Shown here piece by piece: positions 22,677 to 62,356 of a DNA stretch of 64,000 nt. Below the pieces are notes generated by a model. It was not told the DNA's origin. It worked only from the letters and a program-made list of their open reading frames with translations, and did not search any database. The stretch comes from an uncultured Gammaproteobacteria bacterium. GTDB lineage: Bacteria > Patescibacteriota > Patescibacteriia > UBA11705. Numbering within the stretch: the first letter of the stretch is position 1; each line of letters starts with the position of its first letter. The DNA lies in assembly GCA_964592195.1 (NCBI GenBank), contig CAZQEI010000003.1:20174-84173 (forward strand). Direction: 5' to 3'. The translations under genes and the position numbers were made by a program.

Positions 22677-22712
22677 CTCACCTGTTCCTTCGTTCTTTTG
22701 ATCAACTACAAT

Positions 22713-29584: not shown

Positions 29585-29812
29585 GAAACGGGCCTGCCTG
29601 CCGGCAGGCAGGGGTGACGAGAGTGACTGGTGAAGGAATCGGAATTTATTTAATTTGCTTTCATTAGAGATTGCCACGTCCCGATAAATCGGGACTCGTC
29701 CCAAAGGGATCCCTTCGGGACAAAAGAGGTAAGCAAATATTTTATCCGTAATATCCGTCGTGTCATTCGACACGACTGGCATGTCGGATGACATGCCGTA
29801 AAATCGGTAAAA
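29585..29812. other. structured non-coding region (>=5 stable hairpins incl. GC palindrome CCTGCCTGCCGGCAGGCAGG)
   Basis: hairpins GTCCCGA/TCGGGAC, GTCGTGTC/GACACGAC, GGCATGTC/GACATGCC read directly; no convincing ORF. Confidence 0.4.
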
Positions 29813-29831
29813 ATCAGTATATCGGTAATCA

Positions 29832-30323: not shown

Positions 30324-30404
30324 AAATTACGAATTTTCGAATTTGTTTCGAATGTGTACGAATTATTGTTTTTATAATGTTGCGAGTATTTATTTGATCA
30401 ATGG

Positions 30405-31093: not shown

Positions 31094-31120
31094 TTAGCAC
31101 TCAGTTTAATAGACTGCTAA
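31094..31120. promoter_or_regulatory. CIRCE operator TTAGCACTC-N9-GACTGCTAA (1 mismatch to consensus)
   Basis: read directly, abutting hrcA start. Confidence 0.6.
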
Positions 31121-31288
31121 CTACATTATATAGGAATAAATGAGGGTGTCAATAGTCAATGAACATTGATCATTGATCACGGGATAAGCACTAAATCTTA
31201 AATTCTAAAGTAGGAAATATTCTTTTAAATAATAACTTCCATCCCTTTTTCTCATTATACTCTTTTACTCTTTATTCTCACATTTCCA

Positions 31289-33139: not shown

Positions 33140-33312
33140 ATTTTATAATTTATTTCGCTACTACGAATGACAAAGTGGCTACGAATCAACGAATCTTAAA
33201 AGCATAGAAAGCAGAGTAACAATAACAATGTTTTTGAAGTATAGATATTCGTAGATACCTGCCTGCGCAGGCAGGCGTAGCAGATACGTTATTGGTAGCA
33301 AAGACCTATCAT

Positions 33313-36572: not shown

Positions 36573-36584
36573 ATTTTTTTATTT

Positions 36585-36770
36585 CGTAATTCGTAAAGCT
36601 TAACACGTTATTCGTTAAACGTGAAACGAGATACGTGAAGCGTTAATCGTAATTCGTAATTCGTTATACGTAATTCGTGAAGCGATAAATACCTACCCGA
36701 TTAAGGCCTATATTCTTGATTCTTAATTCTTAATTCTTAATTCTTGATTCTTAATTCTTCTCCCTCACCC
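36585..36770. repeat. low-complexity tandem repeats (CGTAATTCGTAA units; TAATTCTTGATTCT units)
   Basis: read directly. Confidence 0.6.
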
Positions 36771-41821: not shown

Positions 41822-43219
41822 TTAAATAAAACGTTCCACGGATTTGGGATGATAAATTCTTAATCCTGCCAAAACAACTCCCAGCGGTATCCACATTCTC
41901 GGTAAATAGTATGAGGTAGAAAATAACTCAAAGAAAATTATTCCCACTGTTAACATTATCAAACACAAAATATAATATCTTTCTTGTTCACGAAACGCCT
42001 GGAAATAGGCACGGACTAAACTGGTTATAATATAGATTAATAAACCGCAGAAACTAATTAAACCTAAAATACCTTGTTCAACAATTAACTTTTGCACAAA
42101 ACCATGAGAATCCAGAGGATCGCCAAAATCCACCACGTAAACAAACGTTGCCCCAATAATATTCATAAACGATCCGACACCATTACCAATAATCGGATGT
42201 TCTAGAAAAGCGTTCCAAGCAATCTCGGACAACGCCAAACGGTTAACATTGGAACTTTGCACGAAGTCAATATTTTGCCAAACAGAGAAATATATAGTTA
42301 ATGGAATCGCAATAATTAAAACCAAGGTACTCCAAAAAACTTTTGGTTTAATTCTTTTTTTCAACCAAAACACCGAAAATATTATTATCTCCAATAACAA
42401 AGCTAAATATCCAGAACGTGATAAAGTTAACAATAGAATTAACAACAAAAATATAATAGACAACAACCACCAACCTTGACCGCGATAGGAATGCGTTTGA
42501 GGTAATAAAAATAAAATTAAAGGTAACGTCACAACAATAATTTCCGCCACCGCATTTTGATTGCCACCCACTGGTTCAAAACCAGAGAAGTTGAATGGCA
42601 CCGCGCGCCCAATAAACGATTGATTATTACTAAATAAAACAGAAAGTGCACCTAAAAATCCAACTATCAAACCCGTTACAATCATTATTTTCAAAACCCG
42701 TTTAAATTGATCAGAGGTTTTTATTAGATTAAAAGGTAAATACACAAACATTAAATAGAAAAAAGCTAATGGACGTAGTAAATACTTAATGGCTAAACCA
42801 ATAAATTCAGCATTGAACATGGACAATAAACCGGACAACAAAAAAGCCACAATAAATAATACCCCTGGGAAATCTTTTAACCGCGGTTTCGCCGTCTTCC
42901 AGTTAACCATGGTTTTAACTATAAACCCAACCAATACTAGGATAGCCATCAAATCCACATAAGGCACATTCACTGATCCCCAAACAAATTGCCAACCAAT
43001 ATAGGGATACAAGAAAATCATTAAATAAAAAAGCCACTGATTCAAAAATATCCCAGCGGCCACGCCAATAATTACAACGTTAATAAAACCCAACAATTTC
43101 CAATCAATCAAATTGACGGCAATTAAATTGAATAAAACCAAAACAAACAACGAAGACAATAACCACTTGGCTGATAGCTCTGCCAGTTTTTCTTTATGCC
43201 AAAAATTGAGTAAATTCAT
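41822..43219 (-). CDS. O-antigen ligase / O-oligosaccharyltransferase family (Wzy_C) membrane protein
   Basis: ~12 TM; periplasmic loop NRLALSEIAWNAFLEHPIIGNGVGSF and HGFVQKLIVEQGILGL resemble Wzy_C motifs. Confidence 0.65.
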   Translation of the reverse strand: MNLLNFWHKEKLAELSAKWLLSSLFVLVLFNLIAVNLIDWKLLGFINVVIIGVAAGIFLNQWLFYLMIFLYPYIGWQFVWGSVNVPYVDLMAILVLVGFIVKTMVNWKTAKPRLKDFPGVLFIVAFLLSGLLSMFNAEFIGLAIKYLLRPLAFFYLMFVYLPFNLIKTSDQFKRVLKIMIVTGLIVGFLGALSVLFSNNQSFIGRAVPFNFSGFEPVGGNQNAVAEIIVVTLPLILFLLPQTHSYRGQGWWLLSIIFLLLILLLTLSRSGYLALLLEIIIFSVFWLKKRIKPKVFWSTLVLIIAIPLTIYFSVWQNIDFVQSSNVNRLALSEIAWNAFLEHPIIGNGVGSFMNIIGATFVYVVDFGDPLDSHGFVQKLIVEQGILGLISFCGLLIYIITSLVRAYFQAFREQERYYILCLIMLTVGIIFFELFSTSYYLPRMWIPLGVVLAGLRIYHPKSVERFI

Positions 43220-43259
43220 ACTCGATCGGGTATTAAGTTATGGTGAAATTATACCATAA

Positions 43260-43440
43260 TTACCAAGCATCTACAAATCAATTACAAATCTACGAACACG
43301 ATTAAATACATGGCTACGGATGCTACCGATTGCAAAAATTAATAAGTTCTTCTACCGATGCTACTGATACAATAAACTAATTATCAAATAATTCTTCGAT
43401 CCGTAGTATCAGTAGTATAGATCTGTAGCATCTGTAGTCA
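43260..43440. repeat. CTACAGATGCTAC / CCGTAG short tandem and inverted repeats
   Basis: read directly; related arrays at 4645-4750 and 24755-24830. Confidence 0.6.
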
Positions 43441-43471
43441 TGTAATCTGGCTCGGGATAATTCAACAAATG

Positions 43472-43500
43472 AAAAAGCCCCGACGATAACGGGGCCTTAG
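43472..43500 (-). terminator. intrinsic terminator GCCCCG-N8-CGGGGC-TTTTT (minus strand)
   Basis: perfect hairpin + U5 immediately after stop of GC-rich gene. Confidence 0.7.
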
Positions 43501-43522
43501 TTGAGAACGTTAAAGAACTTGA

Positions 43523-45852
43523 CTACTTGTTACAGGACAGCCCGTAGAAGTGAGCCGTCTGCTTACCGCCACCGTCAGGGTGCGCGGTAATGGTGGGGGT
43601 GGAACTGCACTCGAGGAGGGCCTTGTCGCCGCTTCCCCACACGCAGTTGAAGTCGAACACGGGAACGGGAGAATCCCAGCTGCAGAGGTCTCCGACGGTC
43701 GAACCGGTGAAGGTGCCGCCGTTCACGATCTGGATCGAGGTCTGGCCGTGCCACACCATGACCGCATCGTATCCGGACGGACACGTGATCTTGCACGTGA
43801 CCTTGCTGGGATCGACATCGCACTTGCCAGCCACGCAGGACAGGGATCCGCACTCGGAGTCTGTCGTGCAGGAACTGGTGAAGGCGCAGGTGTTGGCGAC
43901 GCAGTGATCGTAGGTCAGCGGGTTGTTGTCGTTGCACTGGCTGTCGCTGGAGCAGGTCTTGCACAGCGACTGCACATCATGATGGCACTGGGTGCCGGTA
44001 GAGAACATGTTGGTACCGACGCAGGAGTCGACCGTGCACGCGTCGCCGTCGTTGCAGTCGAGGCTGTCGAGGCACTCGCCGCAGAACGCGCGCGAGTACT
44101 TCTGGAGCGACGTGGCCGTGTAGTCGGCGTAGAGGCAGGTCAGCGGCAGATTGCCACCGCATCCCAGATCCGCGACTCCCACGTCAGGCGTTCCCGAGGT
44201 CGGCACGTACGGCTTGCACGCCTGGCAGAACTTCTGTCCGCCATGGTACGAGTCGGTCGTGCAGTAGTGACCGGTGGCGTTGCCCACGCAGTCGGCGTCG
44301 GTATCGCACTGGGTCAGGTCGGCCTGGCAGTTGGTCTTGGCCACGAACTGGCACTGACCGGCGTTGCAGGTATCGGTGGTGCAGAACTGGCCGTCGTCGC
44401 AGTTGACATCGGCCACGCACTCGCGGCACTGGTTGCCTTCGCACCCGAGGGGGCACTCCAGCAGATCCGAGTACTCGCAGAGGCCGTCGGTCTGGCACTC
44501 GCCGCTCGCCTTGGCCAGGTGAGCGGCATCCACGCAGTAGTCCTGGTCGAGGCACTGGCTGTCGGCGGTGCACTTCTTGCACACCAACTTCATCGGGTGC
44601 TGGCATTCGCCATCGACACACGAATCGTCGGAGCACGGGTTCGCGTCATCGCAGTCGGCGTTGTTCACGCAAGCACCGAGGCACTTCGCGTTCTCGCAGC
44701 CGTTCGCGCAATGCTGCCACGTCCGCTGACACACGCCCTCGATACACTCACCGTTGAAGGTGTAGAGCACCGTGGTGGCGGTGGTCGAGCAGACCTTGGC
44801 GTTGTTCTGGCACTGCGAATCGTTGACGCACGCCGTGCAGTTCTCGATATCCGAGTAGAAGCACCGGGCCGCGTCGCAATATCCAGTCTGACACGCGTTG
44901 CCTTCGTTGCAGTCGATGTCGGCTGCACACTGAGGCGGCAGAACGTGGCAGTTCGGGATCGCGACGTGCTTGCACACGCCGCTGTTGAACGAATCGGTCG
45001 TACACGCGTCACCGTCGTCGCAGTTGAAGTCGACGCAGGCGCCGTTGACGCAGTACTCCCAGGTCGCCCCTGAAGTGCACGGCACGTAGTCCGGCTTGTC
45101 ATGCCGAACGCACGTACCGTTCACGCACTTGTCCGGGAGCGTGTTGTCCGCGCCCGTGCAGGGGTTGTGGTCGTCGCAGTCGAGGTCGGTCGCGCACTGG
45201 TTGCACGCGCTCAGAGGCGTGTGCGAACACGAATACGAATCCGTCCCCGTGCTGGTGCACACGTCCGCCGTGCACGGGTTGTTGTCCGAGCACACGATCG
45301 ACGAGTTGACGCACTGGCCGTTGATGACCGCGTCGGCCGTGCACGGGTTGGCGTCGTAGCAGCCGCCCGCGACGGTGTTGTTCTTGCACTCGACGGAATG
45401 GCACAGGCCATTCTCTCCGCCGATGAAGCAACCTTGACCGTCGGGCTTCGCCGCTCTGGCGCACTGTTCGTTCACGCAGGCGTCGAGCGTGCAGGTGTTG
45501 CCGTCTTCACACGCAACCGGGTTGCAGACCACGGGGGTGGTCTCTTCCTCGGTCTCGTTGGTGTCGACGGACTGCAGATCGCAACCTCGCGGGCCGCACT
45601 GCGGATTCGTGTCGGTGGGATCGGTGGTGTCGGCAGGCGAAACATCGCAGCCTCGCGGGCCGCACACTTCGACCGAAGCCTCGTCCGTCACGTCACCCGA
45701 CGTGCCGGGGTGAAAGGGCTCGGGAGTGTCCGACTCATCGGTCACGTCCGCGCCATTGCCGGGGTTGTTGGGATCGTTGGCTTCCGAACCGGTCACACAA
45801 CCGGCGAGCGCGAGCACCAGAACCGCGAGCAGAGCGAAAACGGACAGCTTCA
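43523..45852 (-). CDS. GC-rich (~62%) cysteine-rich-repeat lipoprotein (Myxococcus-type D-x-N-x-C-T-x-D-x-C-x-x-G-x-C repeats)
   Basis: lipobox LALAGC; >15 repeats of DxNPCTxDxCxxGxC; RBS AAGGAGGG before ATG 45852; ORF 43523..45904 extends further upstream. Confidence 0.7.
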
Positions 45853-46178
45853 TGGACCCTCCTTGCATCCAGACCTTCGAGAAGGGCTGGACTTCCCGGT
45901 TCAAACGGGAATCGGTTGTACAGGAACACTCTGGGTGTTAAGCCCATTAAGATTTACCCGAGTTATTCACAGTCAAATTGGACAGACCTAGCCAAAGTCG
46001 TAAAATATCAATATTAGACACCAGTAATCTCAGTCGTTTTTTCCGGTAAATTTTAATGTTTTTAACTATATAGTATAGCAAATTTTTAGCATTTTGTCAA
46101 CCATTTTCAACACCCAACAACCCTTAGTGTTCTTTGACTACAAACAATGGCTAAAATTAGCCAAAAAGGAGGCGCCAC

Positions 46179-46673
46179 TTGGCCAGTGCCAGTACCAATC
46201 CTCACCAGAAAACTAAGCATCACCTCTACCCCACCTCCAGATGCAAAATCAAGGAAGTTAAAGGTCGAAAAAACCTTCGTGTGGTAGAGCGTCGCTTTCA
46301 TGAGGCTTGGCACTCACTATTTTACAACATGACACCCTTTGAAATCGTAGCCGGCATCATCAGACTGTGGGCGCCTGAAGGTTATTTCACCAAAGCCAAA
46401 ATTGTGGCTGAATGGGAAGACTGCCAATACGAATTCATTCTAGATGGTCCTCTGGATTTTCAATCAGAACGCATTCTCGCTTGTTATGAAAATTCCGTAT
46501 TAAAAAAGAAGCATCTATGGCATGTCTTGTTCCGGAATAAATCATTCCTCGATGTCATCAGTGAAGTCGTCAATGTCTGGGCCCCTCCGGATTTTTTTGA
46601 ACTAGTGGAAGTGGAAGCGAAAGAGAAGAATCAAGTATTGAAGTTTTCTTATGAAAAGAAACAACTGTCCTAA
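46179..46673 (+). CDS. hypothetical protein (TTG start after AAGGAGG RBS)
   Basis: 164-aa ORF. Confidence 0.4.
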   Translation: MASASTNPHQKTKHHLYPTSRCKIKEVKGRKNLRVVERRFHEAWHSLFYNMTPFEIVAGIIRLWAPEGYFTKAKIVAEWEDCQYEFILDGPLDFQSERILACYENSVLKKKHLWHVLFRNKSFLDVISEVVNVWAPPDFFELVEVEAKEKNQVLKFSYEKKQLS

Positions 46674-46682
46674 ATGGGGCAG

Positions 46683-46880
46683 TTTTTTGTTGAGCTACGA
46701 ATAACAAATCAGCTACGAATCTACGTATCGGAAAACTTAAACGCTATAGCTTTAAATCTGATTTCTTACAAATGAAACTGTTTTTGTTGAGCTACGAATA
46801 ACGTATCCGCTACGAATCTACGTATCGGAAAATTGTAACACTACAAATTTAAATCTGGTTTTGTAAAGACAGAAATACTA
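46683..46880. repeat. 2 x ~100-bp tandem units each containing GCTACGAATAAC...GCTACGAATCTACGTATCGG
   Basis: read directly. Confidence 0.65.
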
Positions 46881-47263
46881 TTCAAAACACGTTGGAACTT
46901 AACACCCTCCTTAGTTAAACAAAACAAAATGCCAAGTTCGTGTCCCGTGCTTGATAAATATTTTTTAACCTGATCATAATCACTTTTCAATAATCTTTGT
47001 TTTACTTTTAATTCAACAACAATTTTACCTTCAACTAAAAAATCTAAATAATAATACCCAACTCTTTTTCCAGCATATTCTAACTTCTCATAAACTTGCT
47101 CTTTGTATTTGATCCCTTGCTGATCAAAAGCAGCTGCAAAAGCATTTTGATAAACACTTTCCGGATGATCTGGTCCAATTGTGTTAAATACATTAAAAGC
47201 AATTTTTACAATTCTATAACTTAAATCTGGATATAATATATTAGTATTATTTAATGTGCCCAT
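46841..47263 (-). CDS. GxxExxY-family protein
   Basis: YRIVKIAFNVFNTIGPDHPESVYQNAF ... GYYYLDFLVEGKIVVELK resembles GxxExxY/PD-(D/E)xK-like family. Confidence 0.5.
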   Translation of the reverse strand: MGTLNNTNILYPDLSYRIVKIAFNVFNTIGPDHPESVYQNAFAAAFDQQGIKYKEQVYEKLEYAGKRVGYYYLDFLVEGKIVVELKVKQRLLKSDYDQVKKYLSSTGHELGILFCLTKEGVKFQRVLNSISVFTKPDLNL

Positions 47264-47267
47264 ATTA

Positions 47268-47450
47268 TTTGTATATACACAGCTGATTTGTTATTGGTAG
47301 AAAGTCACAATTTTAATTTTATACATAATATTCGTAGATTCGTAGCTGATTGGTTATTGGTATAGGAAGTCACAATTTTAATTTTATGCATAATATTCGT
47401 AGATTCGTAGCTGATTTGTTATTGGTAGGAAGCCACAATTTTATAATAGA
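47268..47450. repeat. ~2.7 x 62-bp tandem repeat (AGCTGATTTGTTATTGGTAGAAAGTCACAATTTTAATTTTATACATAATATTCGTAGATTCGT)
   Basis: read directly; contains ATTCGTAGATTCGTAGC motif. Confidence 0.7.
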
Positions 47451-47457
47451 TAAACTT

Positions 47458-47889
47458 CTAACCAATTCGCTCCCAACTTTCCACATTACCTCTAACAACA
47501 ATAAACAACGGATGTGGTTCAACTTTGTTTGTTAATTTAATTTCTTCAAACTGAACAGAATTTCTGTCTTTCAATTTTGTTAATAAATGTTGCCATTCGA
47601 AATCAATCTGTCCGCTTGTAACAGGAATTTGACTTATTAATTTATTATCAGCAAATTTACTTTGGTCAAACTTATATCGCCGACGAACACTTTCTTCAAA
47701 GATTACCGACAAATAATTATCAATAAAATAAACAGGATCATCCATTTTTTTAAATCGAATTAACTGCGGATGATTTTTATAACCAATAGTGTTGCCCAAT
47801 AAAACTTTTTTCGCCAACAAAGCCTCTCGCCAAACAGCGACTAAACCGGCGGGATCTAAATATTTTGGATGCAGACTCCACAATCTCAT
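47458..47889 (-). CDS. pyrimidine-dimer DNA glycosylase-like (T4 endonuclease V / Pyr_excise family)
   Basis: N-terminal MRLWSLHPKYLDPAGLVAVWREALLAKKV parallels T4 endoV [26 protein letters not shown]. Confidence 0.5.
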   Translation of the reverse strand: MRLWSLHPKYLDPAGLVAVWREALLAKKVLLGNTIGYKNHPQLIRFKKMDDPVYFIDNYLSVIFEESVRRRYKFDQSKFADNKLISQIPVTSGQIDFEWQHLLTKLKDRNSVQFEEIKLTNKVEPHPLFIVVRGNVESWERIG

Positions 47890-48254
47890 ATTTCAAAACT
47901 TATAGAATAAAATTTCATTATTAACCAAGCATGAATCAACGTTGCCACCATTAAAACCACAATATACACAATTTGACTTTTCTTATGCCGAAAAACAATC
48001 ATCCCCAACCACCCGCCAACAAAACCACCGACCAATGATAAACCATTCAAAATTATATTCGGAATTCTTAAGGCTCGACTGGTGGCGGCTAATTTATCGT
48101 AGGCGTAAAAAAAGAAAGTTAACAAACCACTTGTCATTAACCAAACTAAATACAAAGACCATCGCGTATACCACCAAATTCCCAAACCAAAAATCAACGA
48201 TAACGCTACGCTTGCAATTAACCAAAATTTGTATACGTTAAAATGTTTTCTCAT
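47886..48254 (-). CDS. DUF1294-family small membrane protein
   Basis: FFYAYDKLAA...RIPN..L...GG.VGGWLGM.VFRHKK.K motif; 3 TM; 6 nt downstream of family-B paralog 1. Confidence 0.55.
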   Translation of the reverse strand: MRKHFNVYKFWLIASVALSLIFGLGIWWYTRWSLYLVWLMTSGLLTFFFYAYDKLAATSRALRIPNIILNGLSLVGGFVGGWLGMIVFRHKKSQIVYIVVLMVATLIHAWLIMKFYSISFEI

Positions 48255-48260
48255 AATTTT

Positions 48261-49835
48261 CTATTTCTTTGGCGTTGGTAGCTGTATTTGTTTAATGGAA
48301 ATTTTTCCTTTGATACAATCGAGATAAAAATATTTTCCTTTTGAATAAACCACCTTCCAATTTCCAACACTTGGCTGATCACTACGTTTACCATCTATCC
48401 ACAAAAAATTATCATCTACACAACTCCAAAAAACATGTTCCCCCGACGCACAGAACTTTGAGACTTCACCTTTTGGCATTTCAACTTTTACATTATCAAT
48501 ATATAAATAGTTGACCCGATCACTTTTCGGAGTACCCACATCTTCACTAACATAAAACAATGATCCTTTATGACCCAGAACTTCTATTGGTTTTTCTGTA
48601 GAGTAAACTCCGTTAAAATCACCAACAATACGAGTATCATCAACATTAAAACGAACCTCGGAAAAACCGTCACCACAGATGATGTAATCCAAAGTACCAC
48701 CCAAGTGATGTTGCGAAACCATAACCAATCTGCCATTGGATATACTTTTTTTTAATATCAGAGTATCCGGAGGATTCAGTCTTTCTATGTGATGACTACC
48801 TTTGACAAATTTATAAACATCTTGGTAAGCAACTCTACTGCTTTTCTTTCTACTATTTAAAATAAAATAAAGATTATCACCATTTGTAATTATTTCACCA
48901 ATGGTTAAGATATTTCCATCATGTCGATCATGTATCTGTGTCTCAATTAAATTATTCCCTCCAGTTAAATCATTAACAAACACATCATATAATTGTTTTG
49001 AAGGACTAAAAATTGACTGGAGACAACATAAATTCCCATCATAAGTAAAAGGCAAACTAAAATCATCCAATTTCGAATCAGATTCTATCTCGTTATTACC
49101 CAATACCAATTTTCGTCCTTTGTCTTTGCGATTATTACTGACATAAGCCAATCGCCCGTCAACCATTCCGACTTTTTCATATTGTTGTTGATTCTTAGTT
49201 AATAAACTTCCGTCTAAGTCAAGCACCATACCAACATCAATATCTCTATACTTGCCTAAAAAAGCTTTTAACTCATTATTTTCATCGGTCACTGGATTCA
49301 TCGTACCGCTCGGCGTATCGGATAAATTCTCATCCCCAATATGCTTCCCCTCCGCATCAACAATATCACCTCTTAATTGTTGACCTTTATCCAGATATTT
49401 AAAATAAAAGCAGGGACGACCGTTATATATAATCGGTTGACGTTCAACCACTCGTTGATTCCTATCACAAGGAAACTCATTTAAACGTTTTCCATCAATA
49501 TTAATTAACCCCGAAGATTTGCCATCTCTGGTAATCAAATCAAAAAACACTTCATCGTTAACCACAATAAGATCATCAGTCAAATTGGCTGTTTTGAATT
49601 CAGTGCCAGTCAAATCAATGGTGGCTTCATGAATAAATCTGGGCTCAGGAATTATCTCTTCCGTCATCCCTTCCACCTCCCTCAGCAACTCCGTGACAAA
49701 TCTCGGATTACGGGCGCTAAGTCCGGCGGCTTTTCTTTTAGCCACTAATTCGCGCAAACGTTCAGAACGTTCAGCGTAGTTTAATATTTGATCTTTATCT
49801 GTTGAATCCAATGTTAGGCTTAAATACTCACCCAT
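48261..49835 (-). CDS. family-B paralog 1 (N-module + WG-like beta repeats + conserved C-terminus)
   Basis: MGEYLSLTLDSTDKDQILNYAERSERLRELVAKRKAAGLSARNPRFVTELLREVEGM ... LWIDGKRSD..WKVVYSKGKYF. Confidence 0.8.
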   Translation of the reverse strand: MGEYLSLTLDSTDKDQILNYAERSERLRELVAKRKAAGLSARNPRFVTELLREVEGMTEEIIPEPRFIHEATIDLTGTEFKTANLTDDLIVVNDEVFFDLITRDGKSSGLINIDGKRLNEFPCDRNQRVVERQPIIYNGRPCFYFKYLDKGQQLRGDIVDAEGKHIGDENLSDTPSGTMNPVTDENNELKAFLGKYRDIDVGMVLDLDGSLLTKNQQQYEKVGMVDGRLAYVSNNRKDKGRKLVLGNNEIESDSKLDDFSLPFTYDGNLCCLQSIFSPSKQLYDVFVNDLTGGNNLIETQIHDRHDGNILTIGEIITNGDNLYFILNSRKKSSRVAYQDVYKFVKGSHHIERLNPPDTLILKKSISNGRLVMVSQHHLGGTLDYIICGDGFSEVRFNVDDTRIVGDFNGVYSTEKPIEVLGHKGSLFYVSEDVGTPKSDRVNYLYIDNVKVEMPKGEVSKFCASGEHVFWSCVDDNFLWIDGKRSDQPSVGNWKVVYSKGKYFYLDCIKGKISIKQIQLPTPKK

Positions 49836-49837
49836 AT

Positions 49838-51412
49838 TTATATTAAATTTTTTATTTCTCTAATCGAAATCTTTTTGTCTTTGTGACTAATATGAAAATA
49901 TTTTTCTCGTGAATACACCACTTTCCAATCTGCCGGGTAACACGGGAAATCAGTTTTCTTGCCGTCAATCCAAAGGACTCTATTCTCTTTATCCGAGTCA
50001 TCGTCCCAGAAAAAATGTCCATTTACAACATTAAAATTATTAACAATACAGTTTGGAACTTCCACCTTTTCATTATCAATGTATAAATAATTCATACCTC
50101 CGTCCTCTCTTCTTATCATCTCCAAACTCATATAAAATAATGTACCAGTATGTCCCAAAATTTCCACCGGTTTTTCCGTAGAAAAACAGCCGGAGTGGGA
50201 TCCTAACAATTCATCCTGATTTATTTTTACGGGAAATTTGCCTTCCATTCCAATTACATAATCCCAACCTTCCATGGCCATGGATGGTTGTTCGCCGATA
50301 GTTGTAATTCTACCTCCGGATAAAAACATTTTTGCGATTGCATTTTGCTTTACAATTTCCTGCATTATACCATTTGAAAATTTTAGAACAGAATACGCGC
50401 CATCGTCGGTATTTTTATCACTAATATACGCCAAACAGTAAATATTCTCACCATTCACAATAACATTTTCAATTCTTGAAACTTGACCGCCATTGATCCG
50501 ATCTTTAACTTCTCCCACAGTCAGACATTTACTGGTAACCATATCCATCAAAGCAAACTGATGATTATCTGATGATCCATCATAGTGCGAATATATTGCG
50601 TAAACATTGTCACCAACAACAAAAGGCAAGCTGTAATTATCATCCTCATCTACATATTCAATTTTATGCGACCCCCAACAAACTCTTCGACCTCTGTCCT
50701 TTGCCACATACGCCAATTCATCTTTAACTACTGACGCTTTTTCAAAAAAGGCTTCCTTGGTTAAATTTTCACCCTTTAAATCCACAATTCTTTGTATCAT
50801 ACTTTCTCCATCTGACAACAGTCTAGTCTTCACAAAATAACGCAACTCGCCGTTTTCATCCAAGACAGCATCAAAACTATGACTACCTGATTCATCAATA
50901 ATTTTATTCCCACCCGCATGTTCACCGACCGATGTAACAAATTCACCAATTTCATCATCTTCTGTTATTTTATAAAGCAACTTAAAACATGGTTTACCTT
51001 GGTATAAGATGGGTTCATTTTGATTCAGATGAAAACTGGAAGTACAAGGCCTGGGGTTAACAAATTTTTTATCTAATGTCATCACGTCAACCGACTTGCC
51101 GTTTTTAGCATGAACTGTCACAAAAATTTCATCGTTTTGAAAGATTACATCTTGGCCAACCGAGGTTATATATGAATCAATTTCATTCAAATCAATCTCC
51201 GCTTCATGAATAAACATTGATTCATCCAATGTTTCAATCGCCATCCCTTCTACCTCACGCAACAAATCTGCTACATACCTCGGATCATGGGCGCTAAGAC
51301 CGGTGGCTTTTCTGCTTGCCACCAACTCACGCAAACGTTCTGAACGTGCGGCGTAGTTTAAAGTTTGGTCTTTATCTGATGGATCTATAGTTAGACTTAA
51401 ATGCTCTCCCAT
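49838..51412 (-). CDS. family-B paralog 2
   Basis: same N- and C-terminal blocks; 2-nt spacer to neighbour. Confidence 0.8.
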   Translation of the reverse strand: MGEHLSLTIDPSDKDQTLNYAARSERLRELVASRKATGLSAHDPRYVADLLREVEGMAIETLDESMFIHEAEIDLNEIDSYITSVGQDVIFQNDEIFVTVHAKNGKSVDVMTLDKKFVNPRPCTSSFHLNQNEPILYQGKPCFKLLYKITEDDEIGEFVTSVGEHAGGNKIIDESGSHSFDAVLDENGELRYFVKTRLLSDGESMIQRIVDLKGENLTKEAFFEKASVVKDELAYVAKDRGRRVCWGSHKIEYVDEDDNYSLPFVVGDNVYAIYSHYDGSSDNHQFALMDMVTSKCLTVGEVKDRINGGQVSRIENVIVNGENIYCLAYISDKNTDDGAYSVLKFSNGIMQEIVKQNAIAKMFLSGGRITTIGEQPSMAMEGWDYVIGMEGKFPVKINQDELLGSHSGCFSTEKPVEILGHTGTLFYMSLEMIRREDGGMNYLYIDNEKVEVPNCIVNNFNVVNGHFFWDDDSDKENRVLWIDGKKTDFPCYPADWKVVYSREKYFHISHKDKKISIREIKNLI

Positions 51413-51414
51413 AG

Positions 51415-52974
51415 TTATATTAAATTTTTTATTTCTCTAATCGAAATCTTTTTATCTTGATTATTAATGAGAAAATATTTGCCGCGAGAATATACCACCT
51501 TCCAACTTCCAAATTGACACGGTAAATTAGTTTTCTTGCCATCAATCCACAAAGTTCTATTGCCATCATTATCAAGATTATCCCAAAATAAATGATTCCG
51601 CACAACCCTAAATGCCCGGACTTCACAATCAATCATTTCAATCTTATTGTTATCCACATATAAATAATTCACAGAATCACCTTCAACGTTAGTTTCTTCT
51701 GTCATATAGAATAAAGTCCCAGTCTGACCGAATATTTCAATCGGTTGGTCTGTAACAAAAATACCATCTTTCCCATTTAAAATATCTTTATCCTGATTTA
51801 AAGACGCAGTTTCTCCATCTTCTAATTCAATGATTATCATATCGTCTTCATCAATGTGTTGTTCTCGGACTGTTACCAATTTACTTCCAGTTAATGCAAT
51901 TTTTTGTAAAACCCCACCTCCGGTAATTATTTCCATCTTCCCATTCCCAATTTTACAAACAACACAATCAGTTTCACCAAGATTATCGCTATTTAGAACA
52001 CAATAAACTGCGTTACCACAGATTAATACATTTTCAATGGAAATATCATCATCTTCATTCGTACCAGGCAAAATTTCACTACCCGTAGTTTGACCTGTTA
52101 CAATGTCTTTAACACACAAGACATAATGTTCATTTCTTGGATCAAACATTGATTGAATTACGCATATTTGCCCATTAAAATCAAAAGGCAAACTAAAATC
52201 ATCTTTTTCGTGCTGTGATTGAATTTCATTTTTACCCCAAATTATCCGCTTGCGTGATTTATTTGGTAATTTCAATTCATATGCTAACTCGCCTCGAACA
52301 TAGGCAACCCTAGAATATGGAACTATCCCCTCTGGTGAAATTTTGTTTCCATTTAAATCTAAAATCTCTTTCATATCATGTAAACCACCAGCGTTCCGAA
52401 CTCGCATAAAGGCCTTCAATTCCATATTCTCATCCACCACTTCAGTCAACTGGTCTGAGGATGCGAAGACTCCCTGATTAATCGATTTTCCTTGCGAATT
52501 TACAAATTCAATTACTGAATGATCAGACATATCACGATGTTTCATTCTGAAAAATGGAGTTTTATTTACGTAACCACAAAATTCGATTGAGCCCGATATA
52601 CATGGGACATTATTAAGATGAATTCCCTCAATATTTAACAAATGCTCAAACTGGGGGGTGCCGTATTTTTTTACTTTAAAAAATACTTCATCACCAGCTA
52701 CAATCACATCGTTGGAAACACTTGACAATTGAAGATCATTTTCACTCAAATCAATCACCGCTTCATGAATAAACATTGATTCATCCACCGATTCAATCGC
52801 CATCCCTTCTACCTCACGCAACAAATCCGCCACAAATCGCGGATCGCGGGCGCTAAGACCGGCGGCTTTTCTGCTTGCCACTAACTCACGCAAACGTTCT
52901 GAACGTACGGCGTAGTTTAAAGTTTGATCTTTGTCCTTCGGGTCAAGGGTTAATTTTTGTTCGCCAATAGGCAT
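51415..52974 (-). CDS. family-B paralog 3
   Basis: MPIGEQKLTLDPKDKDQTLNYAVRSERLRELVASRKAAGLSARDPRFVADLLREVEGM. Confidence 0.8.
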   Translation of the reverse strand: MPIGEQKLTLDPKDKDQTLNYAVRSERLRELVASRKAAGLSARDPRFVADLLREVEGMAIESVDESMFIHEAVIDLSENDLQLSSVSNDVIVAGDEVFFKVKKYGTPQFEHLLNIEGIHLNNVPCISGSIEFCGYVNKTPFFRMKHRDMSDHSVIEFVNSQGKSINQGVFASSDQLTEVVDENMELKAFMRVRNAGGLHDMKEILDLNGNKISPEGIVPYSRVAYVRGELAYELKLPNKSRKRIIWGKNEIQSQHEKDDFSLPFDFNGQICVIQSMFDPRNEHYVLCVKDIVTGQTTGSEILPGTNEDDDISIENVLICGNAVYCVLNSDNLGETDCVVCKIGNGKMEIITGGGVLQKIALTGSKLVTVREQHIDEDDMIIIELEDGETASLNQDKDILNGKDGIFVTDQPIEIFGQTGTLFYMTEETNVEGDSVNYLYVDNNKIEMIDCEVRAFRVVRNHLFWDNLDNDGNRTLWIDGKKTNLPCQFGSWKVVYSRGKYFLINNQDKKISIREIKNLI

Positions 52975-52976
52975 AC

Positions 52977-54530
52977 TTATATTTTGATTTCACGCACAAT
53001 TAATTTTTGATCTTTCAATCCTAGCATAAAACATTTACCGCCATGAGATACGACTTTCAAAATTTTTTCCGCTGAATATTGCGTTTGTTTACCATCCACC
53101 CAGAGATACGAATCCCCGTCAACAATAGTTCTCGGTCCTGTTGTTCTGGTTTTAGTATATGACCAAAAAACGTGATCTTCAATAACATCAAAATTATCAT
53201 AATTCCCCACAGGTAAATCACTCGATTGATTATCTATCCATAATTTCGGACATTCGCTACCATGGGCATTACTGAGAAAGAATATTTCTCCGGTTTTACC
53301 TTCAATGGTAATAGGTTTATTGGTGTTTTTAATATAACCAGAATCTCCACCACCACCACGGATATGAGTCGTCGCATTTTGTGTTACACCTTCAATATAC
53401 ACTTCAGATTCTTTTTGATTTTCAACATGACTTAAAACCACTAACCGATTATTAAGCAAAAAGAAATCCTCAATTTCTGCGTCTTTAGAACATGGAACAT
53501 CGACTGGTGTAATCTGTTGCCCATCAAATTTAAATAATTTCACAATCCAATCACTATCTTTGTTCACCGAAGCCGTGAAGTATACCGCCTTTTCACCGGC
53601 AATAACTTTCACTATTCGAAAAACATTCCCATCCTCAACATTAATACCGATACCAATATCTCTATCTTGCTGGTCTATAGCCCAAATATAACTTGAGTAC
53701 ATTACCGCATTTGGATCAGAATCATCATTGTCATTATTAGCTTCAATAAATAAAATCTGGTTATTAAAACGAAATGGCATACTGACATTACCTTCCTTTG
53801 TTATATGATTGCCCTTTCTATCCACAAAACCAGAAACACTTTCTCCAGCCCACCTATCACCCCGGTAATACAAAACACCAGATTCATATGAACAATTACA
53901 ATCTTCTAGAAAATCACTTTCAAACCTCCCTGCCATATCCAGCAACCGATAGTTACCACTAACACTTTCATCCTGATCTGGAAAATATTGTCTCACATAA
54001 CCAATCTCGCCAGACTCATCAACTATTACGTTGGGATTATTTTCAAATTTACGAATATCCAAGGAAATTTGTTCTCCTTTTTTATTTAAAAACTTCAATG
54101 CGCCACTGTCCGCATCAGTCAAAGGGAAAATCAATTCGCCTTTATATAAAAAGGTTGAAATAAAAGAACGCGCCGCTGGAAAATCATTTATTGGTTTTCC
54201 TTCAATATCTAAAATTGATTCCTTTTGGTCCTCATTTTTCACCCGCAAAAACAGCTCTCCCTGATTAAAAATTATACACTCGCCGGCTGGACTAAAACCA
54301 TCCAACGGAATATCGACTGAATGAATATATTTTTTATCAAACACCAGCCCATCAGCCATCCCATTCACCTCCCTCAACAAATCCACCACATACCTAGGAT
54401 CATGAGCACTAAGACCAGCGGCTTTATTCCGCGCCACCAATTCGCGCAAACGTTCTGAACGTTCAGCGAAGTTTAAAGTTTGATCTTTGTCATTTGGATC
54501 GAGGGTTAATTTTCGTTCACCAATGGGCAT
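52977..54530 (-). CDS. family-B paralog 4
   Basis: same module. Confidence 0.8.
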   Translation of the reverse strand: MPIGERKLTLDPNDKDQTLNFAERSERLRELVARNKAAGLSAHDPRYVVDLLREVNGMADGLVFDKKYIHSVDIPLDGFSPAGECIIFNQGELFLRVKNEDQKESILDIEGKPINDFPAARSFISTFLYKGELIFPLTDADSGALKFLNKKGEQISLDIRKFENNPNVIVDESGEIGYVRQYFPDQDESVSGNYRLLDMAGRFESDFLEDCNCSYESGVLYYRGDRWAGESVSGFVDRKGNHITKEGNVSMPFRFNNQILFIEANNDNDDSDPNAVMYSSYIWAIDQQDRDIGIGINVEDGNVFRIVKVIAGEKAVYFTASVNKDSDWIVKLFKFDGQQITPVDVPCSKDAEIEDFFLLNNRLVVLSHVENQKESEVYIEGVTQNATTHIRGGGGDSGYIKNTNKPITIEGKTGEIFFLSNAHGSECPKLWIDNQSSDLPVGNYDNFDVIEDHVFWSYTKTRTTGPRTIVDGDSYLWVDGKQTQYSAEKILKVVSHGGKCFMLGLKDQKLIVREIKI

Positions 54531-54532
54531 AA

Positions 54533-56098
54533 TTATATTTTAATTTCACGAACAATTATTTTTGCATACCCTTTATTTTTTTCTTTACCAATAAAATAGT
54601 ATTTATCATTTACAAAAACCACTTTCAAAATATCATTCGACTGATATTGCGTCGGCTGACCATCGATCCATAGAGACGACACCCTATGTTTCCCGGGATT
54701 TAATTTTTTATTTTCAGCTTTGGGAATTTTATGCGCCCAAAACATATGGTCATTGACACTAGCCGAATAAGTAATTTCACCTGCTGGAAAATCTTGCGGC
54801 TCACCATCGACCCACAAAGTTATTTTTTCTCCATCAACGGTCAAAAAAAACACTTTACCGGTATGCCCCATCACAGTTCTTTCATCTTCAAAAGCAAATA
54901 TTTCTCCACATGGTTTATCTGTGGGACTGCCGAGTTTAACTTTTCCTAAATTGTGTAAATAGTAAAAAAATCCTTTACCAGGAAGATACCCGGTATAGAC
55001 CACTTGCCCATTAACCATCCTAAAATCCACAAAATCACTATTCCTGGGAATTTTACGATTTTTTTCATTTAGAATTTCAATATGTGTACCGTCAAAATGA
55101 AACAATAAAACACCATTTTGTGAACTATTTCTCCAACCTTTAGTTTTAATAGTAAAACACACATCCTTGCCATTCACAATAACATTTGAAGGCACAGCGA
55201 CTTCTGAAACATGAAAATTAAAATACGTAAAATTTATATTTCCAAAATTTTCGATCGATACCTTTGAATTTTCAACTTGAATACAAAAATGTTCACCTGA
55301 CTTTCCATACTTAAATGGAATACTTACATTTTCACCTCGTACGTTTTGTTTTTCCCCTCTACCAAGTACATTATAACCAGCCTCATCCTTACCTTTTTTG
55401 TACTGTCCACTCCAAGTCAAAGTATTATCCTTTTCCATTACAAAAGTATAATCAGTCAACCACTCTGTTATAGGCTCCTTGTTCAAATTTATTGCACGGG
55501 CTGTCAACTGCGCATCACCATTGACTGTTTGTTCCAATAAAGCACATAGATTGCCATCATCATCAGTCATTAATTCATATCTTTTATAATCAGAAGCTTC
55601 ACCTTTAAACAATATTTCCTCACCATTCAAATTTACAAATCTAGATGGATTCTCATCTGAAGCGTGAAAAACATCAAACTTTACTCCAAGCTGACCATTC
55701 AATTTAAACGTTTCTATAGGGAAATCGGGCAAAGGTTCTTTATTTATCATCTCGCCTGACAAGCGGCAAACATCCATGCCTTGTTTATCTTGTCTTGGAA
55801 GAGTGAACAAAACTTGATCACCAATCAAATGCACATCGCTTGATTTTACTTTGTTTAATTTATATCCAGGTAATTCCAAATCTTTTTCACAAAGTTCATT
55901 TTTATCCGGCGCCAATTCGACCGCCATGCCTTCAACTTCTTTTAACAAATCCACCACATATCTCGGATCATGGGCGCTAAGTCCGGCGGCTTTTCTTTTG
56001 GCCACCAATTCGCGCAAACGTTCTGAACGCTCGGCGTAATTTAAAGCTTTATCTTTGTCGTTCGGGTCAAGGGTTAATTTTTGTTCATTGAAAGGCAT
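54533..56098 (-). CDS. family-B paralog 5
   Basis: same module. Confidence 0.8.
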   Translation of the reverse strand: MPFNEQKLTLDPNDKDKALNYAERSERLRELVAKRKAAGLSAHDPRYVVDLLKEVEGMAVELAPDKNELCEKDLELPGYKLNKVKSSDVHLIGDQVLFTLPRQDKQGMDVCRLSGEMINKEPLPDFPIETFKLNGQLGVKFDVFHASDENPSRFVNLNGEEILFKGEASDYKRYELMTDDDGNLCALLEQTVNGDAQLTARAINLNKEPITEWLTDYTFVMEKDNTLTWSGQYKKGKDEAGYNVLGRGEKQNVRGENVSIPFKYGKSGEHFCIQVENSKVSIENFGNINFTYFNFHVSEVAVPSNVIVNGKDVCFTIKTKGWRNSSQNGVLLFHFDGTHIEILNEKNRKIPRNSDFVDFRMVNGQVVYTGYLPGKGFFYYLHNLGKVKLGSPTDKPCGEIFAFEDERTVMGHTGKVFFLTVDGEKITLWVDGEPQDFPAGEITYSASVNDHMFWAHKIPKAENKKLNPGKHRVSSLWIDGQPTQYQSNDILKVVFVNDKYYFIGKEKNKGYAKIIVREIKI

Positions 56099-56101
56099 AA
56101 A

Positions 56102-57661: not shown

Positions 57662-57662
57662 A

Positions 57663-59234: not shown

Positions 59235-59236
59235 AG

Positions 59237-60802: not shown

Positions 60803-60835
60803 ATTTAATCAATTGAAATATCTCCGCCTAAGGCG

Positions 60836-60872
60836 CCTGCCTGCCGGCAGGCAGGGATCAGCCTCCGGCTGA
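60836..60872. repeat. composite GC palindrome CCTGCCTGCCGGCAGGCAGG + GATCAGCCTCCGGCTGA
   Basis: only >10-nt spacer inside the family-B array; same modules at 29586-29612, 25352-25398, 3737-3768. Confidence 0.7.
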
Positions 60873-62351: not shown

Positions 62352-62356
62352 ATTAT

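Follow-up and report, generated by a model that had tools for sequence, protein, structure and literature searches.

We analysed a 64,000-nt stretch of DNA from a candidate-phyla-radiation (CPR) bacterium, referred to here as the window. Its region 46683-47450 contains a gene on the minus strand (46841-47263) for a GxxExxY protein (PDDEXK_3/TIGR04256) of about 130-140 aa, as judged by NCBIfam, alignments and an AF2 model. Arms of about 34 nt flank this gene on both sides. Downstream of it are a proximal 3' arm (46792-46825, plus strand) and its duplicated distal copy (46695-46728, plus strand). Upstream of it are the proximal 5' arm (47267-47300, minus strand), a degenerate copy CTACCAATAACAAATCAGCTGTGTATATACAAAT (nhmmer E 6.8e-07) that stops 3 nt short of the ATG, and two duplicated copies on the minus strand, copy 2 (47330-47362) and copy 3 (47395-47428; 1 mismatch to the consensus). 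Both 3' arms and copy 2 were detected by repeat search and nhmmer. The arms at 46695-46728 and 47395-47428 are 94% complementary, with the ORF between them. The plus- and minus-strand copies in this region are inverted arms around the GxxExxY ORF, an arrangement overlooked in the original prediction, which had described them as dispersed or tandem copies.

Tandem amplifications had also been reported at 46683-47450. They are present; TRF put one at 97 bp x 1.8 (46684-46861), given earlier as 100 bp x 2, and the other at 65 bp x 2.6 (47281-47443), given earlier as 62 bp x 2.7, and both duplications were also recovered by repeat search. Besides an arm, the 97-bp unit contains the T-tail of a neighbouring terminator (46663-46684) and the 3' terminus of the GxxExxY ORF. 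The 65-bp unit comprises one arm and about 30 nt of adjoining DNA, including a start-codon-like ATTATG. Each unit is one arm with the adjacent ORF end, which supports the earlier suggestion that these elements are prone to replication slippage. The loci L054 and L057 from metagenomes support it as well: they are nearly identical except for a difference of a single 8-nt unit.

The GxxExxY family is annotated as being of unknown function, and its phylogeny contains many transfers (PMC3424549). One profile search returned 4904 clusters at E<=1e-8. The ORF at 46841-47263 matched NCBIfam TIGR04256 over profile positions 2-115 of 116 with 90.4 bits (cut-off 35; E 9.9e-26). The catalytic residues D74, E84 and K86 (the latter two as E84-x-K86) were invariant in 51 aligned sequences, and E35 was also conserved. 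The AF2 model (pLDDT 87.6) has a PD-(D/E)XK fold. Foldseek placed it nearest to Cas4 (4ic1), lambda-exonuclease-like proteins and Hjc (2eo0), all of them generic PD-(D/E)XK neighbours, and a PDB sequence search with the family profile gave no match. To our knowledge, no PD-(D/E)XK protein of 130 aa is known as a transposase.

The arm sequence is repeated across the window. The motif CTACGAAT had 18 matches on both strands, compared with 1.50 +/- 1.24 expected from 100 dinucleotide shuffles, none of which gave more than 5. All but one of them (17/18) were intergenic, in a window of which 9.7% is intergenic DNA. The full 34-mer CTACGAATAACAAATCAGCTACGAATCTACGAAT matched five times at <=3 mismatches (13034, 22750 and 46695 on the plus strand, 47330 and 47395 on the minus strand; 0 expected), and an nhmmer profile added copies at 46792 and 33161 (plus) and at 47267 and 33247 (minus). 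The 34-nt composite occupies nine sites in the window against 0 expected. The dispersed ~35-bp intergenic element of the original prediction is therefore real. An Rfam gathering scan of the whole window identified no family and no rRNA.

Arm pairs without an ORF were found at two of these places. One (13034-13113) takes up the 91-nt gap from a BNR-repeat gene to frr and folds with z -3.1 to -4.6; a spacer of 11 nt separates its plus-strand arm (13034-13067) from a degenerate inverted arm (13079-13113). In the other (33161-33298), a spacer of 52 nt lies between a plus-strand arm (33161-33194) and an inverted arm (33247-33298), and a nested GC hairpin (33258-33275) splits the latter. A solo arm (22750-22783, plus strand) lies in a convergent (3'-3') gap, where it adjoins a terminator-like hairpin (22720-22745); the GC-rich gene at 21861-22676 is on the plus strand, as tblastn identified the plus frame as the conserved one.

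Beyond the composites, arrays of short units occupy other gaps. TRF reported periods of 7-9 in 12 gaps of the window, and the arrays are tandem direct repeats of heptamers whose unit sequence varies between gaps, each gap having its own variant. Nearly all arrays consist of direct copies followed by inverted copies, and the clean clusters have one constant, convergent polarity, 5'-CTACNAAT...ATTNGTAG-3' (12/12). The looser TACGAAT/TTCGAAT arrays of the original prediction were confirmed. Two are palindromic, one filling the frr-to-glyS gap (12375-12470) and one identified by TRF and folding (28445-28556). A direct array on the plus strand (30324-30368) lies 5 nt upstream of grpE, and a direct array of TCGTAAT-type heptamers on the minus strand (36580-36680) lies upstream of a GT4 gene and is followed by ATTCTTA x 6.9 at 36712-36759. 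The CTACNGAT arrays were confirmed as well. Four direct and then five inverted units form the palindrome at 4644-4745 (z -6.7 to -7.5), between the convergent ends of terC and murJ; a second palindrome at 43313-43440 (z -5.0 to -6.5) sits between the terminator of a 793-aa gene and the Wzy gene; and a direct-only array on the plus strand (24757-24815; 2+2 units around a 21-nt AT spacer; z about 0) is 5 nt upstream of dnaJ. The gene names given earlier for these surroundings held up (frr, a class II aaRS/GlyRS-like gene, DnaJ, GrpE, GT4 and Wzy_C). The other array families of the window (CTACNGAT, TCGTAAT and TAGATTA) are probably the same kind of element with different unit sequences.

Small GC hairpins are nested within array units and recall the small dispersed repeats of cyanobacteria. 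The direct-only arrays at 24757-24815, 30324-30368 and 36580-36680 are not accounted for by an inverted-repeat model.

We also considered GxxExxY genes from metagenomes, using 80 loci of a single clade with 39-48% identity to the query. Flanking inverted repeats above the maximum of 234 shifted controls were found at 59 of 76 genes. Per 63 nt, forward arm units numbered 2.70 upstream of the genes and reverse arm units 2.72 downstream, compared with 0.14 in the controls. The arm consensus, CTACGAAT-TACGAAT-NNNN-TACGAAT-A-TACGAAT, is about 36 nt long and abuts the ATG and the stop codon; written with conservation, it reads AtCTACGAAT-TACgAAT-tTat-TACGAAT-A-TACgAAT, and left and right arms are 87% identical. 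The architecture is fixed: four TAC[G/A/T]AA[T/A] units, arranged 2+2, with constant outer-to-inner polarity. On the outside, the arms extend as far as the stop codon of one host neighbour and the start codon of the other. These neighbours are mostly co-oriented (52/58 and 54/58 cases), and the gaps have medians of 48 and 44.5 nt for a 36-nt arm.

The closest homologue, L013 (77% aa identity), has different neighbour genes and arms of the window family, which directly abut its ATG and overlap its stop codon. Nucleotide homology between the window and L013 is confined to the ORF and arms, and the two cassettes have the arm-AGT/AAT-ATG junction in common. A cassette in a Bacteroidota MAG has the same arms. 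The arm variant is genome-specific and common to ORF-bearing and ORF-less copies, including the pairs and solo arms of the window; ORF-less pairs outside the window lie at 2586-2690 of L004 and 4923-5000 of L013. Among viral contigs, only eight distant GxxExxY relatives were found, all without arms. Our literature searches (motif, GxxExxY/PDDEXK_3 and CPR repeats) found no description of flanking repeats or of an association of GxxExxY genes with arms. The one mention of GxxExxY in PMC8934634 was unrelated.

Comparisons between loci indicated what the unit is. The ORFs of L054 and L073 are 91% nucleotide-identical in unrelated flanks, and the outer ends of the arms are the exact limits of the homology between the two loci. 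L043 and L068 are likewise homologous only between the outer arm ends. Related cassettes in unrelated contexts thus share exactly the arm-end-to-arm-end unit.

The original prediction had also called for a comparison of motif conservation in related genomes. The gaps upstream of frr and glyS, 91 and 105 nt long and filled by elements in the window, are element-free in the syntenic relatives L009 and L011: the frr gap measures 9 nt in L011 and 20 nt in L009, and the frr-to-glyS gap is 17 nt in L011. The motif is not conserved at these sites. The gap of Falkowbacteria L011 that is orthologous to 33161-33298 is occupied by an entire GxxExxY cassette whose arms are of the ACAGATT type, and in L011 ATCTGTA units stand at the position of the dnaJ array. 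In L007, arrays of this kind are inserted in frame in the IscS gene, as judged against E. coli IscS (1p3w). Other GxxExxY genes, or genes for four-helix-bundle (IVS-protein) proteins, are flanked in relatives by arrays of other unit sequences. An exact 22-mer is present in several CPR lineages of 35-55% GC. Between relatives, the elements thus vary in their presence at orthologous sites; they also undergo or tolerate unit slippage and tandem duplication. A look-up of the exact protein of the neighbouring Pyr_excise gene, aimed at filled and empty alleles, gave no record. The frr look-up gave a single contig of 1.5 kb, whose sequence is identical to the window.

Taken together, the best reading is a mobile, slippage-prone inverted-repeat cassette of IVS/REPIN-like type with non-autonomous derivatives. 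We consider it probable that the ~34-nt element forms the terminal inverted repeats of a compact selfish cassette, arm - GxxExxY gene - inverted arm, from which the dispersed copies derive as ORF-less pairs and solo arms. The second alternative of the original prediction, a small non-autonomous repeat family, is supported by these results and becomes specific, its copies being arms and ORF-less arm pairs of the GxxExxY cassette. We infer that the GxxExxY nuclease itself moves the element and that the cassette spreads as DNA without target-site duplications. At the outer arm ends of 39 cassettes, the best direct-repeat length equalled that of the shuffled-partner control. Most likely, the putative PD-(D/E)XK nuclease would cleave at or between the arms, and homology-directed copying (homing or gene conversion) would then carry the cassette into arm-bearing sites; ORF-less pairs would serve both as targets and as non-autonomous passengers. 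In a polycistronic transcript, the arms may pair and loop out the insert, placing the upstream stop beside the downstream start, by analogy with intervening sequences in 23S rRNA. We propose that insertion inside operons is tolerated because the looped-out insert rejoins stop and start in this way.

Pairing of the arms could also serve the host. The arms would then be mRNA stem-loops that are cut by RNase III and insulate or stabilize cistrons, or that keep translational coupling, and the GxxExxY ORF would be incidental cargo. The palindromic composites folded much better than shuffles (z -2.4 to -7.5), the arms span exactly from stop to start of co-oriented neighbours, and left and right arms agreed at 81.5% of inter-unit positions, even though these positions vary between cassettes. 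The same design, an ORF within a stem, is found in 23S rRNA intervening sequences, which RNase III cuts (PMC4990558). Conservation between species was seen for some positions: cassettes occur at the same locus across species in L064/L075, L017/L099 and rpsG-fusA, which therefore indicates long vertical inheritance as well and would fit a host function. However, the TACGAAT unit is conserved across cassettes whose proteins are ~40% identical and whose hosts range from 31 to 56% GC, and pairing alone needs no such sequence. At variable fourth positions, 30% were uncompensated between the arms. The arm-arm RNA duplexes were unexceptional: -29 kcal/mol in the window and a median of -28.6 kcal/mol among the cassettes, compared with -19.9 kcal/mol in controls. 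This edge is moderate because the arms are AT-rich; pairing strength is therefore not the main signal. The direct-only arrays did not fold, the same gaps lack the elements in relatives, and no Rfam family matched. An element maintained for the host as RNA is, on this evidence, unlikely.

We regard as somewhat less likely still that palindromic arrays pre-exist as landing pads, into whose centre small homing-type genes (GxxExxY, the four-helix-bundle IVS protein and GIY-YIG) insert, with the arms as targets outside the mobile unit. Such a model would fit the ORF-less pairs, the presence of three unrelated small-gene families between inverted arrays, the position of the ORF exactly between the inner arm ends and the absence of target-site duplications. 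It conflicts with related cassettes that share arms as well as ORF in unrelated contexts, with homology stopping at the outer arm ends. Each cargo also has its own arm unit, namely TACNAAT for GxxExxY, AATTTNCA for the IVS protein and GC hairpins for GIY-YIG.

Neutral, microsatellite-like arrays, produced by local slippage and template switching in AT-rich spacers and with neither mobility nor function, would explain the separate unit variant in each gap, the polymorphic unit copy number and the tandem duplications. They would not explain why the same 34-nt composite recurs at nine sites, why an identical 22-mer occurs in several CPR lineages, why architecture and polarity are fixed or why the arrays are tightly associated with one gene family, and we consider this origin very improbable.

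The first alternative of the original prediction, a promoter element or operators bound by a global transcription regulator, is the least credible, and we give it almost no weight: elements occupy 3/4 convergent (3'-3') but 0/4 divergent (5'-5') gaps of the window, the same genes lack upstream elements in syntenic relatives, the unit sequence changes from gap to gap, and elements lie within an ORF in L007. Many copies do lie 3-20 nt from the start codons of housekeeping genes, and upstream of the Wzy gene, ATTTGTAG units can by eye give a -35-like TTGTAG beside TATAAT. However, a scan of 42000-49000 for sigma-70 promoters and terminators showed that the arrays do not match the best promoter positions; canonical TTGACT-17-TATAAT promoters lie elsewhere, and a strong promoter pair is located in the array-free divergent gap 45905-46178. 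The reported position mostly upstream of minus-strand genes was an artefact, arising because 53/61 genes are on the minus strand; each element gap is equally downstream of one gene and upstream of the next.

The cassette resembles several known systems. Like the intervening sequences of 23S rRNA (S23p/four-helix-bundle ORF; Leptospira, Coxiella and Salmonella), it is a small ORF within terminal inverted repeats that could form a long stem. Those sequences are sporadic, horizontally transferred and regarded as selfish (PMC4990558). In relatives, four-helix-bundle (PF05635) genes lie between inverted arrays just as GxxExxY genes do. However, intervening sequences reside in rRNA, whereas the elements of the window, which has no rRNA, are situated in operons between genes for proteins; the cassette carries a predicted PD-(D/E)XK nuclease, and its arms are four conserved TACNAAT units. 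The elements also resemble REP/REPIN sequences and RAYTs (PMC3116915, PMC2817692): short intergenic repeats are scattered as inverted doublets, inverted copies of these repeats enclose a single-copy gene, each genome has its own repeat variant in both the gene-flanking and the dispersed copies, and target-site duplication is absent. RAYTs are HUH/Y1 enzymes (PF01797), whereas the candidate enzyme here has a PD-(D/E)XK fold. REPs are individually GC-rich hairpins, whereas the arms are AT-rich and a single 34-nt arm, read from its sequence, is not self-complementary. Identity with REP/RAYT was considered, as the arms end in GTAG, and was rejected, there being no Y1 transposase and no self-complementary units. 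Among the window ORFs scanned with Pfam, none had a Y1 transposase or any other transposase domain.

MITEs and Rickettsia palindromic elements are small non-coding inverted-repeat elements of intergenic space, some of which lie in frame in conserved proteins. The ORF-less arm pairs are likewise short non-coding elements with terminal inverted repeats, and the in-frame insertion in IscS of L007 is a further likeness. The elements differ from MITEs in that their arms are arrays of 7-9-nt units and that they have no target-site duplication, which sets them apart from classical MITEs of the DDE type. As a candidate parent, a gene-bearing form with the same ends exists; its product is a PD-(D/E)XK protein and not a recognized transposase. 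Free-standing homing endonuclease genes are also alike, in having a small nuclease-fold ORF in the middle of a palindrome and uninterrupted copies of the site elsewhere, except that the 'target' of the cassette is itself a dispersed repeat.

The STRR of cyanobacteria are arrays of heptamer repeats. TAACTGA heptamer repeats occur in Beggiatoaceae, Cyanobacteria and Bacteroidetes, with a patchy distribution across phyla that suggests horizontal spread (PMC4679880); that study presents them as direct repeats to which a post-transcriptional regulator is proposed to bind, and it reports no link to flanked genes (PMC4679880). Both share with the window arrays tandem 7-nt units a few nt upstream of start codons, but the published unit sequences differ and most window arrays are paired with inverted arrays.

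As a wider and tentative proposal, which we hold to be possible and somewhat more doubtful than not, GxxExxY proteins may be the enzymes of an unrecognized class of minimal mobile elements, an analogue of REPIN/RAYT built on a PD-(D/E)XK nuclease. They would recognize the four TACNAAT units of their own arms and copy the arm-ORF-arm unit and, in trans, ORF-less pairs between genes. This class would be common among candidate-phyla-radiation bacteria and would extend to Bacteroidota. It would share its biology with the 23S rRNA intervening sequences that carry an ORF and with the heptamer arrays known from cyanobacteria and Beggiatoaceae.

The cassette reading offers a rationale for GxxExxY genes inside operons, for contig breaks at arrays (the L001 contig ends at the array) and for the repeat-filled spacers of small CPR genomes. 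It links rRNA intervening sequences, REPIN-like doublets and heptamer arrays, which have hitherto been handled apart. For annotation, such arrays should not be taken as promoters or regulator sites, and in-frame array insertions in conserved proteins, such as IscS of L007, are to be expected in these lineages. For GxxExxY/PDDEXK_3, a very large family, the arms as a conserved, sequence-specific pair provide a testable candidate substrate.

The original prediction of a dispersed element with associated arrays was confirmed by word counts, 34-mer matches and Tandem Repeats Finder. The motif CTACGAAT occurred 18 times on both strands of the window (39% GC), against 1.5 ± 1.2 expected from dinucleotide shuffles of the window. 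Seventeen of the 18 copies were intergenic when ORFs were picked greedily with a simple boundary rule, which gave 61 genes (53 of them minus-strand) and 90.3% coding sequence. The full 34-mer CTACGAATAACAAATCAGCTACGAATCTACGAAT gave five matches at ≤3 mismatches and 0 in 100 shuffles, and a profile made from element copies found nine in the window. The element had the layout CTACGAAT-AACAAAT-CAGC-TACGAAT-C-TACGAAT. Tandem Repeats Finder detected arrays of period 7-9 in the other predicted gaps. The tandem repeats predicted at 46683-47450 were present, but their sizes needed slight correction, to 97 bp × 1.8 (46684-46861) and 65 bp × 2.6 (47281-47443). Nearly all window arrays consisted of a run of direct units and then a run of inverted units, for example at 4644-4745, 12375-12470, 13034-13113, 28445-28556, 33161-33298 and 43313-43440. 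The polarity 5'-CTACNAAT...ATTNGTAG-3' was observed in 12 of 12 clean clusters in the window and related loci, and the reverse never. These composites folded much more stably than shuffled sequence (z −2.4 to −7.5); the direct-only arrays, few in number, showed no folding relative to shuffles.

At 46683-47450, the plus-strand and minus-strand copies formed inverted arms enclosing one ORF (46841-47263, minus strand, 140 aa), which matched the GxxExxY family TIGR04256 (90.4 bits, cut-off 35) and Pfam PDDEXK_3. The element is an arm of this GxxExxY cassette. The arms at 46695-46728 and 47395-47428 were 94% complementary. The catalytic PD-(D/E)XK residues D74, E84 and K86 were conserved, as was E35, and a confident structure model of the protein had Cas4, lambda-exonuclease and Hjc as its nearest structures. 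The 65-bp unit contained the arm and ~30 nt carrying both the outer flank GAAG(C/T)CACAATTTTA and an ATTATG that resembles a start codon; the 97-bp unit contained the T-tail of the neighbour's terminator, the arm and the ORF 3' end. Thus, both cassette ends were duplicated, each with an arm plus the ORF end next to it. L054 and L057, loci from other sources, were nearly identical except for a difference of one AAACGAAT unit; together with the tandem duplications, this made the predicted proneness to slippage reasonable.

Directly adjoining the cassette, 47458-48254 contained genes for a T4 endonuclease V-type pyrimidine-dimer DNA glycosylase (PF03013) and a DUF1294 protein, neither of which has, to our knowledge, a link to the cassette. 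The minus strand of 48261-63976 carried ten consecutive paralogous genes (497-539 aa, 0-55 nt apart, 23-43% pairwise identity) with the conserved N-terminus MGE.LSLT.D..DKDQ.LNYA.RSERLRELV; the two members scanned had no Pfam or NCBIfam match. Such a ten-gene tandem family is striking in a small-genome organism.

The arms have a fixed four-unit architecture and polarity and are tightly tied to one nuclease gene family. P0122, the homologue closest to the window protein (77% identity), had other neighbours, an uncharacterised gene and tsaE (locus L013). Upstream of it, CTACTAATAACGAATTTGCTACAAAACTACAAAT stopped 3 nt before the ATG, and the inverted copy overlapped the stop codon. Nucleotide similarity between this locus and the window did not extend beyond the ORF (77%) and the arms (79-87%). 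Two further homologues had TACGAAC arms (L015) and ACAGATT arms (L011, whose protein was only 28% identical). A metagenome-contig scan yielded 80 loci with homologues at 39-48% identity. Flanking inverted repeats were scored by local alignment of 120 nt upstream against the reverse complement of 120 nt downstream, and 234 controls of identical geometry were shifted by 600-900 nt. The score exceeded the control maximum in 59 of 76 metagenomic loci (78%, covering one clade of the GxxExxY family; medians 37 vs 14). TACNAAW-like units occurred per 63 nt at 2.70 forward and 0.33 reverse upstream, and at 2.72 reverse and 0.14 forward downstream (controls, 0.14). Relative to the ATG, the innermost unit typically ended at −2 to +10 nt, and relative to the stop at −1 to +10 nt; it often contributed part of the start or stop codon.

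The arm consensus of 47 cassettes, AtCTACGAAT-TACgAAT-tTat-TACGAAT-A-TACgAAT (median length 36 nt), had the same architecture as the window element. The left and right arms of a cassette agreed at 97% of core, 81.5% of inter-unit and 70% of variable fourth positions, against 37% by chance. Across all the fetched loci, which together contained 548 ORFs, strong flanking inverted repeats accompanied 36% of the ORFs of 110-160 aa and ≤1.6% in other size classes. The same arms were found in a thiolase/3HCDH context in a Bacteroidota MAG. Viral contigs carried only distant relatives (27-32% identity), which served as a negative control and had no flanking arms. Neighbouring genes were co-oriented with the cassette in 52 of 58 and 54 of 58 cases, and the gaps to them (medians 48 and 44.5 nt) barely exceeded the arm length. 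In L024 (991-1896), L028, L044 and L061, the cassette immediately followed the rpsG (S7) stop codon within the essential str operon. An insertion there must leave downstream expression unblocked.

The window encodes frr, GlyRS-like, DnaJ, DnaK, GrpE, HrcA, MreB, MurJ, Wzy and GT4 genes. Its best named DnaJ matches (Falkowbacteria, Magasanikbacteria and Kuenenbacteria, 50-57% identity) place it in Patescibacteria (CPR). The sole other assembly of the organism on record, L001 (Logan contig SRR12261225_285168, 1.5 kb), was 100% identical to 12372-13858 and ended at the edge of a TACGAAT array, which suggests that such arrays disrupt short-read assembly. One 22-mer of the element had exact matches at only seven places in GTDB representative genomes: three contigs belonging to a Parcubacteria MAG, and one place each in a Komeilibacteria MAG, a Liptonbacteria MAG and two MAGs labelled Gammaproteobacteria. 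GC content across all of these ranged from 35 to 55%. In them, the element lay a few nt from start codons, in an inverted pair with a 24-nt spacer or, in the Liptonbacteria locus L007, in frame within an IscS-type cysteine desulfurase (1465-2811). Alignment of that protein with E. coli IscS (1p3w) indicated that its insertions coincided with arrays. The arrays at three of them were AAGATTT/TAAATCG, the 34-nt element plus its inverted counterpart, and GGAACAT ×4 / CCTTGTC ×4; a fourth in-frame insertion lay near a CACTCGC array.

Arm-to-arm homology occurred in new contexts. The ORFs of L054/L057/L076 and L073 were 91% identical in nucleotides with wholly unrelated flanks, and the homology (518 nt, 87%) ran from the outer end of one arm to that of the other. 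The pairs L043/L068 and window/L013 showed the same limits. L064/L075 and L017/L099 shared flanks, indicating that vertical inheritance occurs too. The BNR-to-frr gap was 91 nt in the window, all element, vs 9 nt (L011) and 20 nt (L009) in syntenic Falkowbacteria/Logan loci; the frr-to-glyS gap was 105 nt vs 17 nt in L011. ORF-less derivatives also occurred: between the GHL15 gene and the CLIPPER-domain gene, the window had an ORF-less arm pair (33161-33298) and L011 a complete GxxExxY cassette. ORF-less copies and the resident cassette shared an arm variant specific to the genome (window ...CAGCTACGAATCTACGAAT, L013 ...TTTGCTACAAAACTAC).

A second dispersed element, the GC-rich hairpin CCTGCCTGC(CG/G)..GCAGGCAGG, was present in this AT-rich genome at 29593-29620, 33258-33275 and 60836-60863, in L010 at 3263 and in L011 at 11625. 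At 33258 and in L011 it was nested at the same place inside an arm, in non-orthologous gaps, a pattern similar to that of the small dispersed hairpin repeats nested within heptamer arrays of cyanobacteria. GC-rich stem-loops such as CCCGCCAGAGGCGGATCAGCCTCCGGCTG, GTCCCGAAGGGATCCCTTTGGGAC and CGGCATGTCATCCGACATGCC lay in the gaps 23383-23645, 25272-25394, 25956-26143 and 29484-29831, one of them interrupting a TTACGGAT unit; L009 and L011 contained similar hairpins (GTCACCCTGAAC..GTTTCAGGGT).

Among described systems, those nearest to the element are IVS elements, REPIN/RAYT, MITEs or Rickettsia palindromic elements, and cyanobacterial/Beggiatoaceae heptamer arrays (PMC4679880). In how it works, the element most resembles an IVS or a REPIN. 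The 23S rRNA IVSs bear ORFs, are bounded by stem-forming inverted repeats, are cut by RNase III and are regarded as selfish (PMC4990558); the present element differs in sitting outside rRNA. In relatives, four-helix-bundle IVS-protein genes (PF05635) likewise lay between inverted arrays with unit types of their own, TAGATTATAG or AATTTNCA (L011 12714-13085, L026 460-798, L048 2417-2782), and a GIY-YIG gene (L004 3435-3704) lay between GC hairpins. The TAGATTA unit was also present without an ORF, at 28098-28134 of the window. The element differs from REPIN/RAYT in that the Y1 enzyme is absent and the arms are not self-complementary, and from MITEs in having no detectable target-site duplication at cassette ends and no known transposase; a scan of most window ORFs of ≥100 aa revealed no domain of a transposase, RAYT or integrase.

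The alternative in the original prediction, sites of a global regulator near promoters, was not supported. Elements occupied three of four convergent gaps (4580-4752, 22677-22866, 46674-46840) and none of four divergent gaps, counting 21861-22676 as a plus-strand gene; this is opposite to what is expected of promoter elements. Canonical TTGACT-17-TATAAT promoters and GGAGG ribosome-binding sites lay away from arrays (e.g. L009 8380-8543), the best window promoter match (~46100) lay in a divergent gap without arrays, unit sequence varied from gap to gap, and elements were absent upstream of the same genes in relatives. The 21861-22676 frame belongs to a 61% GC segment (21700-22740) with three long overlapping ORFs; of the three, it was the only one that relatives conserved, with 36% identity to L010 (E 5e-31), and it had no Pfam match. 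Just upstream of hrcA (31101-31170, minus sense), a TTGACA-N17-TATAAT promoter preceded a CIRCE-like TTAGCAGTC...GAGTG inverted repeat; this is the HrcA operator expected at such a place and has no relation to the arrays.

PDDEXK_3 is listed as a family of unknown function with multiple transfers (PMC3424549), and the open-access literature searched contained no description of arms flanking its genes. For the cassette, we infer that the encoded nuclease would recognise the arm units, since unit sequence is conserved despite proteins ~40% identical and host GC of 31 to 56%. The cassette may spread by cleavage together with homology-directed copying into sites that carry arms; ORF-less pairs would serve both as targets and as passengers. 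In the transcript, arm pairing would loop out the insert and juxtapose the upstream stop and downstream start, a parallel to the 23S rRNA IVS, and insertion in operons would thereby be tolerable.
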